Shown here piece after piece: positions 29,902 to 34,719 of a stretch of DNA of 64,000 nt. The notes under the pieces are model-generated. The model saw only the letters and a program-made list of their open reading frames with translations. It did not search any database and was not told the DNA's origin. Numbering within the stretch: the first letter of the stretch is position 1; every line of letters starts with the position of its first letter. Source of the stretch: Escherichia phage vB_EcoM_G2285; sequence record MK327933.1; one strand, written 5' to 3'. Both the position numbers and the translations under genes were made by a program.

Positions 29902-30905
29902 TCAAAAATCGAACATATCGAACAGAGATGCTTTCTTCTCGTAATCGAGTTTCGCTGCTGATGTGAATCCTTCAAGTGGTTTAATAAATGTCTTCTCAAG
30001 GAGAACAGTGTAGTCCATCCAATGAAGTACATCGTCTTTAATTAAATCTGTGATTTCAGTACCAGAAGGCCATGCGATACATTTATCACCGAATGGGTTT
30101 CCTTCACGTAAAGGCAGAACATATACTTTTTCACCTTCTACAACTTGCGGTGCATCGATATTACCTTTGATAGCCCGGTTATACGTCAGAATTCCACGAA
30201 TATGGAACGGGCATTTAGGACCAGGGAATCCACCGACGTCATATTTAGCAATGTTATTCGCAGAAGATACCGACGCGATGCTAATATAATTCAATTGACG
30301 GAATTCTTTTTCAAACTCTTTAAAATATTCTTGTAATGATTCTTCGCCTTCCTGAAGCATACGACGAATACATTCCTTAAGAGCTTTCTGTACTGCTTTA
30401 GGAGTCGAAGATTTCTGAGTCTCTAGACCCATGATTTTAAGCTTAGGTTCAGCGTATCTGGTTCCTTCCATATCCCACACGTTTAATGCATAACGTTTCT
30501 TACCAGTCCAGAATCCACCAATACCTTTAGAACCAAGCGGAGGACCAGCAATAGCTTCTCGGTCCATGAACATCAAATGTTGTTTATTGTTCATGTATTC
30601 ACACATTTCACGGAAACCTCTATCAATAGCTGGTTCCATACGTTCACGTGCAAACTTATCTAAGAAGTCTACCCAATGGTTGGTATCACGGAATTTAGAT
30701 TCACCAACCTTATCAATAATTTTATCTGCAGATACGTAAATGGAGTCTGTATCACCATAAAGAACGAAAGCTTCACCTTCTGTACCACAAACTTCATTCA
30801 GATATTCATTAACTTTACGTTCAATCCACTGTAAAGCCATTTGACCAAATGTTGTGATTGCAGTAGCATTACGCAAATCGTAATAACGGAACCAAACGTT
30901 ACCCA
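29902..30905 (-). CDS. 43: DNA polymerase gp43, cistron B exon 2 (palm/thumb, YGDTDS)
   Basis: translation from GNVWFRYYDLRNATAIT through YGDTDS to ..FDMFDF matches recalled RB69/T4 gp43 C-terminus; 5' boundary set at inferred splice site. Confidence 0.85.
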
Positions 30906-31137
30906 CATTATGTTCGACTGAGGTCGTTAATCTCAGCCCGGAATTATATCCAGCTGCATGTCGCCATGCAGAGCAGACTATATCATCATCTTTATAGATG
31001 CTATGCGCTTCCACCCACTTGGGCGTACTCCTTTCGGATAGTCGTTGCACGTTCCTCATAGAGGCTTCGCTCAGGATTGTCTACTAGAGATGTCCCCTGA
31101 ATTCACATAGTTTAAAGTGCGCCGAGTTATTTGGTTA
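30906..31137 (-). ncRNA. group I intron (td/nrdD-like, ORF-less, 232 nt) in gene 43
   Basis: interrupts motif B codons (..LYGAL | GNVWF..); core elements CTCTAGTAGACAATCC and GATATAGTCTGCTCTGCATGGCGACATGCAGC; starts TAA after exon U, ends ..CATAATG. Confidence 0.75.
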
Positions 31138-31306
31138 ACGCACCATACAGACTATTAATAAGCAATTTACGGTTAATCTGAGCCGTATTACCTGCTACTT
31201 CAGCCAATTCGCAGTTTTTAAGATGTTGTTCTAAATCAGCTTTGCTTAAGGACTTGAGATAAGAAATTTCATCTTGTGAAAAGTCTTGAGTGTATGTTAA
31301 ATTCAT
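31138..31306 (-). CDS. 43: DNA polymerase gp43, cistron B exon 1 (motif B)
   Basis: ATG overlapping HEG stop (TAATG); encodes MNLTYTQDF..NTAQINRKLLINSLYGA, the polymerase K-x3-NSxYG region. Confidence 0.7.
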
Positions 31307-32127
31307 TATATTTTATTCCTACAGTTATCAAAGTGCCAACGTTTCATACCAGATAATATACCTTCTTTACCACAGTGCGGACACGTTGCTTTAATCTCTT
31401 TAGCTTTAGCCCAGTATTCTTTCTTAGAGTCTGAAAGGGCCTTATTATGGGCTTCCGAATTGGTTTTGCCTAATCTTGTTTTAACTATATTAGGATTCTC
31501 TGAAATTCTTTGCTTCATCCTAGAAGACTGTTTAGAACGTTGTTCTTTCGACCAGCCATCAGATAAAACTTTCTTTTGTTCTTCAGTTTTGGTTGTACCG
31601 AAGAGATGGGATTTATTTTTAGAATAGTATTCTTTGAGACCTATAGATTGTTTTAACGAAGTTTCAGCAGAATGCTTTGTTCCTATTTTATTTTTACTTG
31701 CTACAGCCCAATTGGCTGCTGCTATGGCTTTATACTTTTCAGGATTTTTGGCTATAGTGATTTTAATAGAATCTGAAACCTTTTTAGCAATCTCTTGGGA
31801 CTTCATAGGATTTGGTAGATTTAAAGAATTTACATAATCCCAACCGCCTTTACCACCAGGATTAAGATTATATGTATCATTTCTTTTTACAAAATCTTTA
31901 TCTACAATTTTAGCTTCAAGGGCATAAGCTTCATCTTCATTATCGAATACTTCCAAAATGGTCTTTTGGAGATTTTCTATACCGTATTTTTCAACGGCTG
32001 CTTTAACAACAGGTCCAGAACCGCGGTAAATATCGTTTTGATTAGACTCATCACACTTATGAACACCTACATAAATTTTACCATTAACGACATTAGTAAT
32101 TTGGTAAACAGTATAAACAGTTTTCAT
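31306..32127 (-). CDS. GIY-YIG homing endonuclease inserted within gene 43
   Basis: VYQITNVVNGKIYVGV GIY-YIG motif; C-terminal CPHCG..MKRWHFDNC zinc finger; start set at ATG with SD GGAGG. Confidence 0.75.
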   Translation of the reverse strand: MKTVYTVYQITNVVNGKIYVGVHKCDESNQNDIYRGSGPVVKAAVEKYGIENLQKTILEVFDNEDEAYALEAKIVDKDFVKRNDTYNLNPGGKGGWDYVNSLNLPNPMKSQEIAKKVSDSIKITIAKNPEKYKAIAAANWAVASKNKIGTKHSAETSLKQSIGLKEYYSKNKSHLFGTTKTEEQKKVLSDGWSKEQRSKQSSRMKQRISENPNIVKTRLGKTNSEAHNKALSDSKKEYWAKAKEIKATCPHCGKEGILSGMKRWHFDNCRNKI

Positions 32128-32153
32128 AATATCCTCCATTAGTTGATAAGACT

Positions 32154-32183
32154 ATAATACCACATCCTTGTGGTATTGTAAAC
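32154..32183 (-). promoter_or_regulatory. early-type promoter for the intragenic endonuclease
   Basis: minus GTTTAC-N18-TATTAT then AGTCTTATCAACTAATGGAGGATATTATG. Confidence 0.45.
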
Positions 32184-33703
32184 TATTTTGAAGCCAAAAT
32201 CTCTTTAATTATTTCAGCATTTCGCTGTGCAGCCAACATGTAGCGCTTATGTTCTTTACGCTGCAAGAATACCTTAGTGATTTCTGTTGGAATCACACCA
32301 TCACGGTCTTTATAATACATCATGCCGTTAGGAGAGCAACTGTACACATCTGAAGGACGTTCGGCGATTGCGTTAATATACTCATGCAGTGGAGCTACTT
32401 TAAACGTTCCTGCTATTGTTTCCGGGCTAATATTCACTTGGCGAATAATACTTGGATACAGAGATGTAAGGTCGAAACTCATTACATATTTGTATCGATT
32501 TGGAATAGGTTCCTTAACAAAAGCGCCAGGATAAGGTTGAACCGGGTGAGAACGACCTTGTGGAATCACCTTGTTCTGCTCTTTAAGGCTATTAAAAATA
32601 ATAGCATCCCATGTTTTAATTGGGCTAAACACAGATTGAATCTGTATCTTAGCATAATAACCCATGTCCAAGCTCAAGTTGATGAACTGACGCTTAGCAT
32701 CAATTTGCAATACACGATACACGTCGATAATGTTATAAGAAATATATCGTTGGTGATTGCTTTCACGAAGCTTAGAAATAGGGCCGTCATATTTCAGTTT
32801 ACCAACGTTCAATTCAAATTCTGAAATGTAATCCAGAGAATATGACGGTTGATTGGTAAAAGAGAATTTTTTGTAAAGGTCAATGTAATCAAGAACAGAG
32901 ATACCGAACAATGTAATGATTTCACGAGAACCATACATGTTTTCGATAACTTTAACACGAGTTTTACGATGTGGTGACAACCGTTTTGCTGTGGATTCGC
33001 CAAAAATATTCTTGATTCGGTTATACACATATGGAATATCAAATGACTCAACGTTCCATCCAGTCAAAATGACAGGAGTTTTCTGTTGCCAGAAGTTGAG
33101 ATATTCCATCAACAATTCTTTTTCGTTATCGAACGGCATATAAATGATTTTATCGATAATTTCAGATGGAACTTCATCACCGCCTTGTTCTTGAAGCTTA
33201 GCAGCGATTTCAATAGACCATTCTTCTACATTACCATACGGAGAATTCAATAGATCAAATACATAGAACCTGTCGTCAATTGAGTCATAATGGGTGATAG
33301 CATCAATCGGATGTTTTGCTTGTGACGGCTCAGGGAACCCATCCGGAGATGTTACTTCGATGTCGAAGTTAGCCACACGAATTTTTGTATGGTCGTATTT
33401 GATTTCATAGTTATAAGTGTCAGACAAATACGCCAATTTGAAATCGTCCATGCCAAGTGCTTCAAGTCCGATATCTTCCATGCGTTTAATCCATTGGGAG
33501 GCATCACGCATATTAGCGAACAGCTTACGAGTACACGGCTTACCGTAGATATCGAAATATTTCGTAGCCTGACTTTCTGGACAATGAGCAAACAGTGATG
33601 GTTTATATTCTACTTCACGAGTACGTTCACGGCCATTAGAATCGATGTAACGTTCAAAAATTGAATCACCAATCTGTTCAACCGTTAAGTAAAATTCTTT
33701 CAT
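32183..33703 (-). CDS. 43: DNA polymerase gp43, cistron A (N-terminal and 3'-5' exonuclease domains, motif A)
   Basis: 506 aa; MKEFYLTVEQIGDSIFERYID..FDIEV..YNIIDV..DLTSLYPSII matches recalled RB69 gp43 N-terminal half; ends at in-frame stop. Confidence 0.9.
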   Translation of the reverse strand: MKEFYLTVEQIGDSIFERYIDSNGRERTREVEYKPSLFAHCPESQATKYFDIYGKPCTRKLFANMRDASQWIKRMEDIGLEALGMDDFKLAYLSDTYNYEIKYDHTKIRVANFDIEVTSPDGFPEPSQAKHPIDAITHYDSIDDRFYVFDLLNSPYGNVEEWSIEIAAKLQEQGGDEVPSEIIDKIIYMPFDNEKELLMEYLNFWQQKTPVILTGWNVESFDIPYVYNRIKNIFGESTAKRLSPHRKTRVKVIENMYGSREIITLFGISVLDYIDLYKKFSFTNQPSYSLDYISEFELNVGKLKYDGPISKLRESNHQRYISYNIIDVYRVLQIDAKRQFINLSLDMGYYAKIQIQSVFSPIKTWDAIIFNSLKEQNKVIPQGRSHPVQPYPGAFVKEPIPNRYKYVMSFDLTSLYPSIIRQVNISPETIAGTFKVAPLHEYINAIAERPSDVYSCSPNGMMYYKDRDGVIPTEITKVFLQRKEHKRYMLAAQRNAEIIKEILASK

Positions 33704-33715
33704 TTAATTTCCTTT

Positions 33716-33731
33716 AGACGAGTTATTGTCT
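33716..33731 (-). promoter_or_regulatory. gene 43 translational operator-like hairpin
   Basis: minus AGAC-AAUAACUC-GUCU 15 nt upstream of ATG; loop matches the recalled T4 gp43 operator loop. Confidence 0.45.
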
Positions 33732-33762
33732 TTTGTTTGTTGATGAACTTATTATACTCCAA

Positions 33763-33780
33763 ATGGGACCGAAGTCCCAT
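33763..33780 (-). terminator. hairpin after regA (ATGGGAC-TTCG-GTCCCAT), followed by TGGAGTATAAT promoter-like -10
   Basis: perfect 7-bp stem with TTCG loop; weak U-tail. Confidence 0.4.
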
Positions 33781-33784
33781 TGCT

Positions 33785-34153
33785 TTAATTACCAATTGTA
33801 TATTTTGCTTTCAAAGTCCAGTCATCTTTCTGTTTAAAAGAGATAACACGGAAGTTATTAGTCAGGCCAAACAGATCTTCACGAGCAGAGTCTTCAATAA
33901 CAATCAAGCCCCAGTCTTCAAGCAACTGAGCAATCGAATCACGTCGCTGATAGTCTTCACCATCAATATCAACCTGACGTCCGTCCATACGCAACATTTC
34001 TTTAAAGTGGACGATGTAGTATTTACCTTGCTTTTGGAGGATATGACAGGACTGATAAAGAACTTTATCCTTGTTATTAGCGATGCCCATACGGGTCAAA
34101 GTCTCTTTGACTTTCAGAAAATCTTCAGGGTTCTTCAATTTAATTTCAATCAT
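33785..34153 (-). CDS. regA: RegA translational repressor
   Basis: MIEIKLKNPEDFLKVKETLTRMGIANNKDKVLYQSCHILQK matches recalled T4 RegA. Confidence 0.9.
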   Translation of the reverse strand: MIEIKLKNPEDFLKVKETLTRMGIANNKDKVLYQSCHILQKQGKYYIVHFKEMLRMDGRQVDIDGEDYQRRDSIAQLLEDWGLIVIEDSAREDLFGLTNNFRVISFKQKDDWTLKAKYTIGN

Positions 34154-34155
34154 TT

Positions 34156-34719
34156 TTACCATTCCAATGCTAATTTTTTAAATTGTTTTTGTTCTTTCAC
34201 ATTTTTTGTAACTTCTTTGAGAAACTCATCAGTGACCATGGCCTTCAGTTCTTTAAGGACTATTGGCAACTTGTTATTTTTTTCAAGGAGCCGCTTATAC
34301 TCGGTAGCATCATTCATGTTGATTGTGTAATGTTTCATCAACAGTTTGATAACTAGTAACTCTGAAGTGTCTTCGACTAGTTTAGCCCATTTAGAGAATC
34401 GACGACCACGCGGAATTGCTGCCATCATATAGTTGAAGTGCGCTTCATCACTTAATTCAGAACCGACTAAGTTCATCATGTAAACAGCTGGCATACATTC
34501 TGGGAACTGGGATAATGAGTTCTCAACCATAAATTTTGAGTAGTCGACCTGAGCAATTGACATAGATTTCTTTTCATTAATAGCATTAATGATTTTAAAG
34601 AATTCATTCTCAGGTTTTTCTTTAAACATATCAGCACATTTTTGAATCGCATCAGCATCATTAGACTTCCATGCAATTTGGTGCTCGTTAAGTTGGACGT
34701 CATCATCAAATAAGTTCAT
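34156..34719 (-). CDS. 62: clamp loader small subunit
   Basis: 187 aa; position and length match T4 gp62. Confidence 0.8.

Follow-up and report, generated by a model that had tools for sequence, protein, structure and literature searches.

The gene 43 control region of Escherichia phage vB_EcoM_G2285 is identical to that of phage RB69 and precedes a split DNA polymerase gene

The operator RNA of phage T4 gene 43 launched SELEX, having been the object of the first SELEX experiment. Tuerk and colleagues reportedly described, in 1988, C(UUCG)G hairpins of T4 intercistronic regions. The T4 DNA polymerase, gp43, represses its own translation and binds a hairpin and a sequence overlapping the ribosome-binding site (PMC3014915); like the RB69 polymerase, it is an RNA-binding autogenous repressor (PMC535899). 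The RB69 operator is a 16-base hairpin-loop and that of T4 an 18-base one, with a loop common to both in which the -UAAC- core and the 3' AC are important for binding; the gp43 palm domain is where RB69 operator RNA crosslinks (PMC3014915). That these polymerases bind their operators is taken here from the literature, through two reviews or secondary papers, as is the status of T4 P43 as a mapped middle promoter with its start at 29933 (PMC2988021). Gene 43 is not always a single cistron. According to the summary in PMC2988022 of Petrov et al. 2010, Aeromonas phages 25, 44RR and phiAS4 share the order 43A, GIY-YIG endonuclease, short 43B exon, group I intron and exon 2, and in phage 25 the split products of 43A and 43B purify together as an active polymerase (PMC2988022).

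We analyzed a window of 64,000 nt from Escherichia phage vB_EcoM_G2285 (MK327933.1), reading its control region on the minus strand. Judged from its sequence, the locus belongs to a T4-like phage of the RB69 type (Mosigvirus) and comprises the control region between regA and gene 43. The spacer between regA and gene 43 is 81 nt long and matches the published RB69 control region base for base; the 301 nt spanning the regA/gene 43 junction are 100% identical to RB69 (AY303349), and the leader sits inside a 368-nt block without differences from RB69, in a region that diverges locally by only about 1%. Genes 45-44-62-regA-43 stand in the RB69 order (collinear at 97.4%). The motifs proposed by the first-pass annotation were all located there by direct reading of the minus strand, and comparison with the described gene 43 leaders found that of RB69 identical and that of T4 to carry the same operator loop and the same TTGGAGTATAAT. 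What this analysis established is the sequence identity, where each element lies, and that both hairpins and the -10 box are conserved in evolution. We give a probability of roughly 85% to the explanation as a whole, in which hairpin 1, a P43-like promoter and the gp43 operator make up an RB69-identical control region. As a control region it holds nothing new, being the textbook T4/RB69 case of an mRNA repressed by the replication enzyme it encodes; the element is real and already known, and the unusual part is the split polymerase gene behind it. The features of the control region are as follows.

33785 to 34162, minus strand: regA (translational repressor), 125 aa (Pfam Translat_reg PF01818, E 4.9e-60; collinear with RB69 regA)
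33787 to 33785, minus strand: regA stop TAA, opening the 81-nt intergenic region (direct read)
33762 to 33781, minus strand: hairpin 1, AATGGGAC-TTCG-GTCCCATT (MFE and centroid folds, covariation, RNAalifold)
33751 to 33760, minus strand: GGAG and TATAAT, putative -10 of the gene 43 promoter (homology to T4 middle promoter P43)
33743 to 33745, minus strand: predicted transcription start, 6-8 nt after the -10 (by transfer of the distance between the homologous T4 -10 and the P43 start)
33716 to 33731, minus strand: gene 43 translational operator, AGAC-AATAACTC-GTCT (RB69 identity, covariation, fit to the literature)
33708 to 33714, minus strand: Shine-Dalgarno AAGGAAA, with its AAGGA core at 33714-33710, 6 nt before the ATG (direct read)

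The operator pairs AGAC at 33731-33728 with GUCU at 33719-33716 around the 8-nt loop AAUAACUC at 33727-33720. Its stem ends 1-2 nt upstream of the Shine-Dalgarno AAGGA, and the gene 43A start codon, ATG at 33703-33701 on the minus strand, opens an ORF encoding PolB. The first-pass annotation had picked out this hairpin by its T4-type loop, followed by the Shine-Dalgarno AAGGAAA and an ATG; the latter two were confirmed by direct reading, and the hairpin turned out to be the 16-nt RB69 operator, AGAC-AAUAACUC-GUCU, with the same sequence, position and context (Wang, Pavlov & Karam 1997; Petrov & Karam 2002, as summarised in PMC3014915). Behind the RB69 operator lies a single cistron of 903 aa, whereas here only 43A follows and the remainder of the polymerase comes from a separate, intron-containing cistron. 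T4 has AGCCU-AAUAACUC-GGGCU, with the same loop in the same placement relative to promoter and Shine-Dalgarno, and by homology the mechanism would be alike. The T4 stem (AGCCU/GGGCU) has 5 bp and a U-G closing pair, compared with 4 bp here. In T4, 8 nt separate the -10 from the operator and 18 nt separate the operator from the ATG; the corresponding distances in vB_EcoM_G2285 are 19 nt and 12 nt. Under the proposed mechanism, polymerase not engaged on DNA would bind the operator loop and the adjacent single strand, block the ribosome-binding site and so repress its own synthesis.

Both hairpins are present in the MFE and centroid folds of a 111-nt stretch, the folding energy of which is unremarkable (z = -0.96, not significant); because of this, folding energy alone cannot set the region apart, and the case was built on comparison. 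From an unguided alignment of 12 whole intergenic regions, RNAalifold returned exactly the two hairpins, with compensatory changes at 8 of the 10 pairs, and AAGGA was kept in all of the aligned leaders. For the operator, 19 distinct versions were compared as well, taken from T4-like phages that share 64-100% RegA identity with the window; loops were anchored on the motif only and not on pairing. The hairpin is conserved in these relatives and its stem covaries: stem cells were paired in 85% of cases versus 59.5% in shuffles, 27 cells carried double changes, and compensatory changes occurred at four of five pairs. The covariation score was 0.767 versus 0.286 in shuffles, a value reached by none of 500 shuffles, and sliding the pairing partners as a control lowered pairing to 18-44% and the score to 0.19 or less. 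The loop reads AAU-N-ACUC: bases 1-3 and 5-7 never change, base 8 is C in 90% or more and base 4 varies, meaning that seven of the eight bases are fixed or nearly so.

Exactly one AAT[ACT]ACTC hairpin occurs in the window, 2 nt before the Shine-Dalgarno of gene 43; mononucleotide shuffling of the window (300 rounds) gave an expectation of 0.28 per 64 kb on both strands for this loop with a stem of at least 4 bp. An operator covariance model scored 34 bits here and 14.5 bits (E 0.46) at the next-best site in the window, and it found no second operator in the window, including before 43B; since the model was built with the window's own sequence, only the absence of a second site is informative. 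No Rfam family matched the leader at E up to 1, the sole Rfam find being the group I intron described below. The operator is uniform across T4-like phages of Escherichia, Klebsiella, Yersinia, Enterobacter and others, with the AAU-N-ACUC loop on a freely covarying stem, and because no existing family matched, it could be curated as one.

Hairpin 1 starts 3 nt past the regA stop, where the upstream transcription unit has its 3' end; as RNA it is very stable, with an 8-bp GC-rich stem and a C(UUCG)G tetraloop, AAUGGGAC-UUCG-GUCCCAUU. Its GC-rich stem, C(UUCG)G closure and location right after a stop codon are like those of the T4 intercistronic hairpins, from which no difference was noted, and its function here is putative. 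It had initially been described as a 7-bp stem and named the regA terminator. The hairpin is indeed present, but its stem is longer by one A-T pair, and the name fares less well than the structure. Covariation shows that the hairpin is kept, with its cells paired in 93% of cases versus 74% in shuffles and double changes at seven of eight pairs (24 distinct versions). The U-tract, on the other hand, is weak: the coding-strand tail is AUUUGGAG / UGGAGUAUAA, in which the sole U run is AUUU, partly within the stem, and better U-tracts follow the homologous hairpin in T4 (UUAUUU) and several relatives (UUUUU). Hairpin 1 fails a terminator scan of the coding strand and is terminator-like on the opposite strand only, and in many relatives the homologous hairpin follows an ORF other than regA, namely an extra small ORF. 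"Leaky terminator or 3'-end stabiliser" is thus the safer description, the termination efficiency being one that we infer. Hairpin 1 would close the 45-44-62-regA unit as a leaky terminator, as a barrier to 3' exonucleases, or both, while its DNA occupies the -35/MotA-box position of the next promoter.

It is conceivable, if somewhat against the odds, that hairpin 1 is mainly a protector of RNA 3' ends or a processing landmark and not a terminator. Read-through RNA would then be cut at GGAG by RegB, or nearby, so that the regA mRNA would end in the hairpin and gene 43 would have an mRNA of its own. Besides the weak U-tract and the failed coding-strand scan, such a role would suit the loops found in relatives, which belong mostly to the stable UNCG and GNRA classes (UUCG, UACG, UCCG, GAAA) and point to selection on RNA stability, and it would suit a hairpin that follows whichever ORF lies upstream, regA or the small ORF. 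Many transcripts probably come from upstream and read through the hairpin. The GGAG at 33760-33757 is a possible RegB cleavage motif on such read-through RNA, GGAGUAUAAUA matching five of seven positions of the extended RegB consensus (GG*AGRAYARAA; PMC3014915). The motif is not kept, however, relatives having GUAG, GGGG, UGGG or AGAG, and most middle transcripts resist RegB (PMC3014915). Many relatives also carry four to five U after the stem, like true terminators (UUUUUGG in lineage L008 and UUUUCGG in L021), and the annotators of the T4-like phage G50 label the homologous hairpin a terminator.

Downstream of the operator, gene 43 is split, as the first-pass annotation had noted; the parts in order are 43A, a GIY-YIG endonuclease gene and a 43B with a group I intron.

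32183 to 33703, minus strand: gene 43A, N-terminal 506 aa of DNA polymerase (Pfam DNA_pol_B_exo1 and DNA_pol_B)
31306 to 32139, minus strand: free-standing GIY-YIG (Seg-like) homing endonuclease gene, 277 aa (Pfam SegE_GIY-YIG and GIY-YIG, both slightly under the curated cut-offs)
29902 to 31306, minus strand: gene 43B, with exon 1 at 31306-31138, group I intron at 31137-30906 and exon 2 at 30905-29902

Gene 43A is the only cistron directly behind the operator, and its product aligns to residues 1-506 of RB69 gp43 with 496 identical (98%). A cluster of mismatches at 32200-32399 points to a possible co-conversion tract. The endonuclease stop overlaps the 43B start (TAATG). The 232-nt intron in 43B matches the full model of Rfam RF00028 at 83.6 bits, against a gathering score of 50, and predicted splicing after a U at the 5' boundary and a G at the 3' boundary restores LYGAL-GNVWF and yields a product of 390 aa; this spliced gp43B aligns to residues 514-903 of RB69 gp43 with 363 identical (93%). 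The endonuclease is 41-44% identical to the gene-43 endonucleases of Aeromonas phages 25, 44RR and phiAS4 (44% for phiAS4), and an exact-sequence look-up of it returned no record. Unlike those Aeromonas phages, vB_EcoM_G2285 is an RB69-like coliphage, and whereas it has the operator, the Aeromonas phages with a split gene 43 are without a T4-type operator upstream of 43A; the 39-nt regA-43A spacer of phiAS4 contains a hairpin and a Shine-Dalgarno only, with no AAUAACUC hairpin. The whole cassette was found in no record of a collection of 50,697 phage records and is absent from the RB69-like phages in it. Coverage of the split gene region, or of the cassette itself, reached 80% in no record, not even among the 153 records at least 95% identical on both flanks, which suggests that the cassette is recent.

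An operator placed before a two-cistron polymerase lets one ask, in a naturally occurring construct, whether the entire enzyme is required for RNA binding. Autogenous repression may persist despite the split, as the first-pass annotation suggested, and the two-piece polymerase of vB_EcoM_G2285 may still bind the operator. A tentative proposal, one that we favor at less than even odds, is that the RB69 operator is read by a two-subunit polymerase, such that only assembled gp43A-gp43B binds and throttles 43A alone. The nucleic-acid groove would exist only in the assembled gp43A-gp43B, so that feedback would sense assembled, idle enzyme, and gp43B, without an operator of its own, would be supplied by translational coupling to the endonuclease gene and by intron splicing. 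If true, it would be the first case of a split PolB under T4-type polymerase autoregulation, and would serve as a natural test for assigning the RNA-binding determinants to one half of the enzyme or the other.

The operator might instead be an inherited relic, its RNA-binding partner surface having been lost or made non-repressing by the split and the hairpin being intact only because the split is recent. The leader does lie within the RB69-identical block, and at about 1% local divergence neutrality also predicts zero changes in 81 nt; the apparent recency of the cassette, the missing AAUAACUC hairpin in phiAS4, which has the same 43A/endonuclease/43B-plus-intron architecture, and the existence of T4-related polymerases that do not autoregulate (PMC3014915) all lean the same way. 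We nevertheless regard a relic as unlikely. RNA binding by RB69 gp43 uses the DNA-binding region (PMC3014915, PMC535899), which an active enzyme must retain, the split proteins of phage 25 make up just such an active enzyme, and both gp43A and gp43B remain close to the matching parts of RB69 gp43 at the identities given above.

The P1 loop of the intron contains AAAUAACUCGG, which matches the operator loop and was considered as a second polymerase-binding site but set aside. The 8-mer occurs four times in the window versus 4.3 expected, the site receives no score from the operator covariance model, a hairpin is impossible there without using the P1 wobble G, and the homologous phiAS4 intron has CAUUAACUUGG at this position.

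The promoter elements lie between the two hairpins, with GGAG at 33760-33757 and TATAAT at 33756-33751 on the minus strand. Here the earlier reading of a promoter -10 is supported by homology, since T4 carries the same TTGGAGTATAAT downstream of the same hairpin type and the mapped P43 start lies 5-7 nt after that box; the label "extended" was dropped, the bases before TATAAT being GAG (33759-33757), with no TGn. By analogy with the MotA/AsiA-dependent T4 P43, TATAAT would start a leader of about 41 nt in which the operator hairpin is predicted at roughly +14 to +29. Among the 12 aligned intergenic regions, TATAAT is invariant, no other hexamer of the spacer is fully so, and its spacing from either hairpin changes, a combination that fits a DNA signal read on its own. 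No sigma-70 -35/-10 pair at the gene 43 promoter passes a promoter scan and there is no usable -35, which fits an activator-dependent promoter. We looked for a MotA box as (a/t)(a/t)(a/t)TGCTTtA located 12 +/- 1 bp upstream of the -10; at 13 bp upstream stands TGGGACTTCG, which has an ACTT core with the CTT centre kept and agrees with the consensus at about 4-5 of 10 positions. The corresponding core in T4 P43 is GCTT at a spacing of 15 bp, and T4 P46 has an ACTT core and is still MotA-activated. By analogy, the promoter in vB_EcoM_G2285 may depend on MotA.

Neither the T4 GenBank nor the RefSeq record has promoter or terminator features at the homologous site, and the published computational RB69 lists (Nolan et al. 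2006 supplements) have no early or middle promoter and no terminator at the homologous position, about 33,400; because those lists are consensus-driven, this absence neither supports nor refutes the promoter. In two lineages (L020 and L029) the -10 lies 0-5 nt from the operator stem, so that transcripts would begin at or inside the hairpin, and promoter and operator are therefore not always compatible in a simple way. Despite the missing RB69 prediction, the poor MotA box and these two abutting arrangements, it is very improbable that TATAAT is no promoter here, with gene 43 expressed by read-through only and the box kept as an RNA signal or part of a polymerase footprint, given that the homologous T4 site is an experimentally mapped start and that the hexamer stays invariant at varying distance to the hairpins across 12 lineages.

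The control region of gene 43 occupies an 81-nt spacer, read directly on the minus strand, between an open reading frame (ORF) encoding RegA (Pfam PF01818, E = 4.9e-60) and one that Pfam assigns to the N-terminal part of a family B DNA polymerase. The motifs listed by the first-pass annotation are present on this strand, and their coordinates were confirmed by direct reading:

33787-33785, minus strand: regA stop codon, TAA
33781-33762, minus strand: hairpin 1, 8-bp stem, AATGGGAC-TTCG-GTCCCATT
33760-33757, minus strand: GGAG
33756-33751, minus strand: TATAAT
between TATAAT and the 4-bp hairpin, minus strand: A-rich stretch of 19 nt
33731-33716, minus strand: operator hairpin, 4-bp stem, AGAC-AATAACTC-GTCT
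33714-33710, minus strand: AAGGA
33703-33701, minus strand: ATG of gene 43A

Both hairpins were present in the minimum-energy and centroid folds, and the stretch as a whole folded no better than shuffled sequence (z = -0.96). A 301-nt junction query matched RB69 (AY303349) at 100%, and the same query found 139 records at 99% or more. Over the surrounding 4.2 kb, which holds genes 45, 44, 62, and regA together with the first half of 43, the sequence is 97.4% identical to RB69 and collinear with it, indicating that the source phage is RB69-like (Mosigvirus) and not RB69 itself. When compared with the known gene 43 leaders, the leader in the window was identical to that of RB69 and shared the loop AAUAACUC with T4. 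The region is therefore the known RB69 gene 43 promoter and translational operator, a correct re-identification of an already well-studied element.

The DNA polymerase gp43 of T4 is an autogenous translational repressor whose RNA operator comprises a hairpin and a sequence overlapping the ribosome-binding site. The hairpin-loop is 18 bases long in T4 and 16 in RB69, with the loop common to both; the first SELEX experiment selected predominantly the loop core -UAAC-, and RB69 operator RNA was crosslinked to the gp43 palm domain (PMC3014915). The T4 and RB69 polymerases are both RNA-binding autogenous repressors but differ in specificity (PMC535899). The window element, AGAC-AAUAACUC-GUCU, has 16 bases, as in RB69, whereas the T4 genome reads AGCCU-AAUAACUC-GGGCU, with 18. 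Sequence identity and the 16-base description in the literature identify the element as the RB69 operator, and the first-pass annotation had the gp43 operator loop right. Hairpins with the loop AAT[ACT]ACTC and a stem of at least 4 bp are expected 0.28 times per window on both strands, and the only one observed immediately precedes the ribosome-binding site of gene 43. An operator covariance model detected no further copy anywhere in the window, which leaves 43B, the downstream part of the split gene, without an operator.

Searching IMG/VR with RegA gave 80 loci, and the leader could be extracted from 46 of these, as well as from T4 and RB69, where a gp43 homologue follows regA. Anchoring on the loop motif alone, with pairing ignored, yielded 19 distinct versions of the operator, carried by phages with 64-100% identity to the RegA of the window. 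Loop positions 1-3 and 5-7 were invariant, position 8 was C in at least 90%, and position 4 was A, C, or U, with stem variants GAC/GUC, GUC/GAC, GCC/GGC, UCC/GGA, and ACC/GGU. Stem cells were paired in 85% of cases versus 59.5% in shuffles, 27 cells were changed on both sides, and the covariation score was reached by none of 500 shuffles; sliding the 3' partner by 1-3 columns lowered pairing to 18-44%. Hairpin 1 was 93% paired in 24 versions, a percentage biased by an alignment built from the best tetraloop hairpin, with double changes at 7 of 8 pairs. As a check on this bias, RNAalifold was run on an unguided MAFFT alignment of 12 whole intergenic regions, in which TATAAT was invariant; it returned exactly hairpin 1 and the operator hairpin and no other structure, with compensatory changes in 8 of 10 pairs. 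The first-pass annotation had named a lack of hairpin conservation in related phages, together with a failure of polymerase to bind the RNA, as evidence against its reading, and across the 19 versions the operator hairpin is conserved with compensatory stem changes. The operator was absent in more distant lineages (L046-L049, and L026, which carries an insertion), in agreement with the remark that some T4-related polymerases do not autoregulate (PMC3014915).

In the lineages L020 and L029, TATAAT lies only 0-5 nt from the operator stem, so that the promoter's transcripts would start at or inside the hairpin, and in L020 a 9-nt loop (U + AAUAACUC) is needed for four pairs; a simple promoter-then-operator model does not explain this layout. 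Many T4-like phages carry one or more extra ORFs, about 120 to 380 nt in total, between regA and hairpin 1 (L007-L009, L011-L017, L021, L022, L025, L033, L037, L039-L044, and L070), and hairpin 1, the -10, and the operator are kept together downstream as one module.

Hairpin 1 had been called the regA terminator. The hairpin itself is very stable and conserved, and the loops of its relatives fall mostly into the UNCG and GNRA classes (UUCG, UACG, UCCG, and GAAA), which points to selection on the RNA. The terminator label fared less well, as the coding strand after the stem has a poor tail (AUUUGGAG), the terminator scan was positive on the opposite strand only, and the hairpin is not in the TransTerm predictions for RB69. 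Many transcripts probably start upstream and read through it, which counts against a simple terminator. Also against it, an extra small ORF rather than regA precedes the hairpin in many relatives, making it part of a promoter-proximal module rather than of regA. U-tracts are better in T4 (UUAUUU) and several relatives (UUUUU), and annotators of a T4-like genome labelled the homologous hairpin a terminator. We concluded that hairpin 1 acts as a 3'-end stabiliser, a leaky terminator, or both. The GGAG just downstream agrees with the extended RegB consensus at 5 of 7 positions, and read-through RNA could possibly be processed there by RegB; GGAG is not conserved across lineages.

The bases before TATAAT are GAG and not TGn, so its description as an extended -10 was wrong. 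In the T4 P43 region a hairpin of the same type is likewise followed by TTGGAGTATAAT, and P43 is among the experimentally identified T4 middle promoters, with its start at 29933 (PMC2988021). This start is 5 nt past the final T of the box, 2 nt short of where a canonical +1 would lie. By homology, the promoter in the window is predicted to start transcripts near 33744, whose leader of about 41 nt would carry the operator close to the 5' end. No sigma-70 -35/-10 pair passed a consensus scan at the site, which fits an activator-dependent promoter. T4 middle promoters need a MotA box with the consensus (a/t)(a/t)(a/t)TGCTTtA, separated from the downstream -10 by 12 +/- 1 bp. At this position (13-bp spacing) the window holds TGGGACTTCG, within hairpin 1; it matches the consensus poorly overall, and at its centre stands ACTT, a deviant core also found in T4 P46. 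The site is not among the 32 RB69 middle promoters of a published HMM-based list. The CC31-like lineages L040-L044 have hairpin 1 shifted upstream by about 25 nt, and a separate TGCTAT stands 12-13 nt before their -10, which suggests that the hairpin and MotA box are distinct elements compacted together in T4 and RB69. We infer that the promoter in the window phage would be MotA dependent.

Opposite regA, the plus strand at 33782-33815 carries a near-perfect MotA box, CATTGCTTTA, followed after 11 nt by TATATT, the two together resembling a middle promoter directed antisense into regA. In T4 the equivalent site has a 10-nt spacer, and the published RB69 middle-promoter predictions do not include the antisense site. 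On the gene strand, AAGCAA just 5' of hairpin 1 is conserved even where a different ORF precedes the hairpin.

More notable than the control region is the presence, outside the coordinates first described, of a split/endonuclease/intron cassette of the phage-25 type in an RB69-like coliphage. RB69 gene 43 is a single cistron of 903 aa, whereas the window layout spans 29902-33703 (minus strand):

33703-32183, minus strand: 43A, behind the operator, ending after 506 codons
32139-31306, minus strand: free-standing GIY-YIG/Seg-like homing endonuclease ORF, 277 aa
31306-31138, minus strand: 43B exon 1
31137-30906, minus strand: ORF-less group I intron, 232 nt, complete core (Rfam 83.6 bits; gathering score 50)
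30905-29902, minus strand: 43B exon 2

The endonuclease stop codon overlaps the 43B ATG (TAATG, 31304-31308), suggesting that gp43B may be translationally coupled to the endonuclease ORF. The predicted splice, 31138|30905, has a 5' splice-site U and a terminal intron G, and restores ...SLYGAL-GNVWF.... Spliced gp43B (390 aa) aligns to RB69 residues 514-903 at 93% identity, and gp43A to residues 1-506 at 98%. Aeromonas phage 25 has the same split architecture (PMC2988022), as does phiAS4, where it is annotated and the endonuclease is 44% identical to that of the window; the Aeromonas endonucleases, at 41-44% identity, are its nearest relatives. None of 50,697 phage records covers at least 80% of the cassette, and a large collection has no exact match to the endonuclease protein. 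Dhakavirus PSD2002 has the same intron (93.7% over the matched exon-intron stretch) but neither the endonuclease nor the split.

The first-pass annotation had suggested that autogenous repression is conserved even though the gene is split. The leader lies within a 368-nt block identical to RB69, and with local divergence of only about 1%, its intactness is also expected under neutrality. The 4.2 kb has 110 mismatches to RB69, of which 27 fall within 200 nt beside the insertion (32200-32399), compared with 0-6 per 200 nt elsewhere in 43A. This cluster resembles a co-conversion tract or an endonuclease target that has been recoded, and its co-conversion-like character hints at a recent event. 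In the equally split phiAS4, the 39-nt regA-43A spacer consists of a hairpin and a Shine-Dalgarno sequence without the AAUAACUC hairpin, and so offers no precedent for an operator combined with the split. Counted in favour of function were the assembly of the split gp43 of phage 25 into an active polymerase (PMC2988022), the use of the DNA-binding region for RNA binding by RB69 gp43 (PMC3014915, PMC535899), and the high identity of gp43A and gp43B to the RB69 protein. Retained autoregulation in the split gene is not deducible from sequence, and the intactness of the operator does not amount to evolutionary support for its function.

The intron P1 loop (31137-31117, minus strand) reads UAACCAAAUAACUCGG, containing the operator loop AAUAACUC and the following G; it is identical in PSD2002, whereas phiAS4 has CAUUAACUUGG there. 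As a candidate operator-like site it was rejected, since the operator model gives it no score and the 8-mer is as frequent in the window as expected by chance; the likeness is probably coincidence. A 12-bp hairpin at 32153-32180, within the 43 nt that separate the end of 43A from the endonuclease ORF, overlaps a promoter-like TTTACA-17-TATTAT (minus strand) and may control endonuclease expression.
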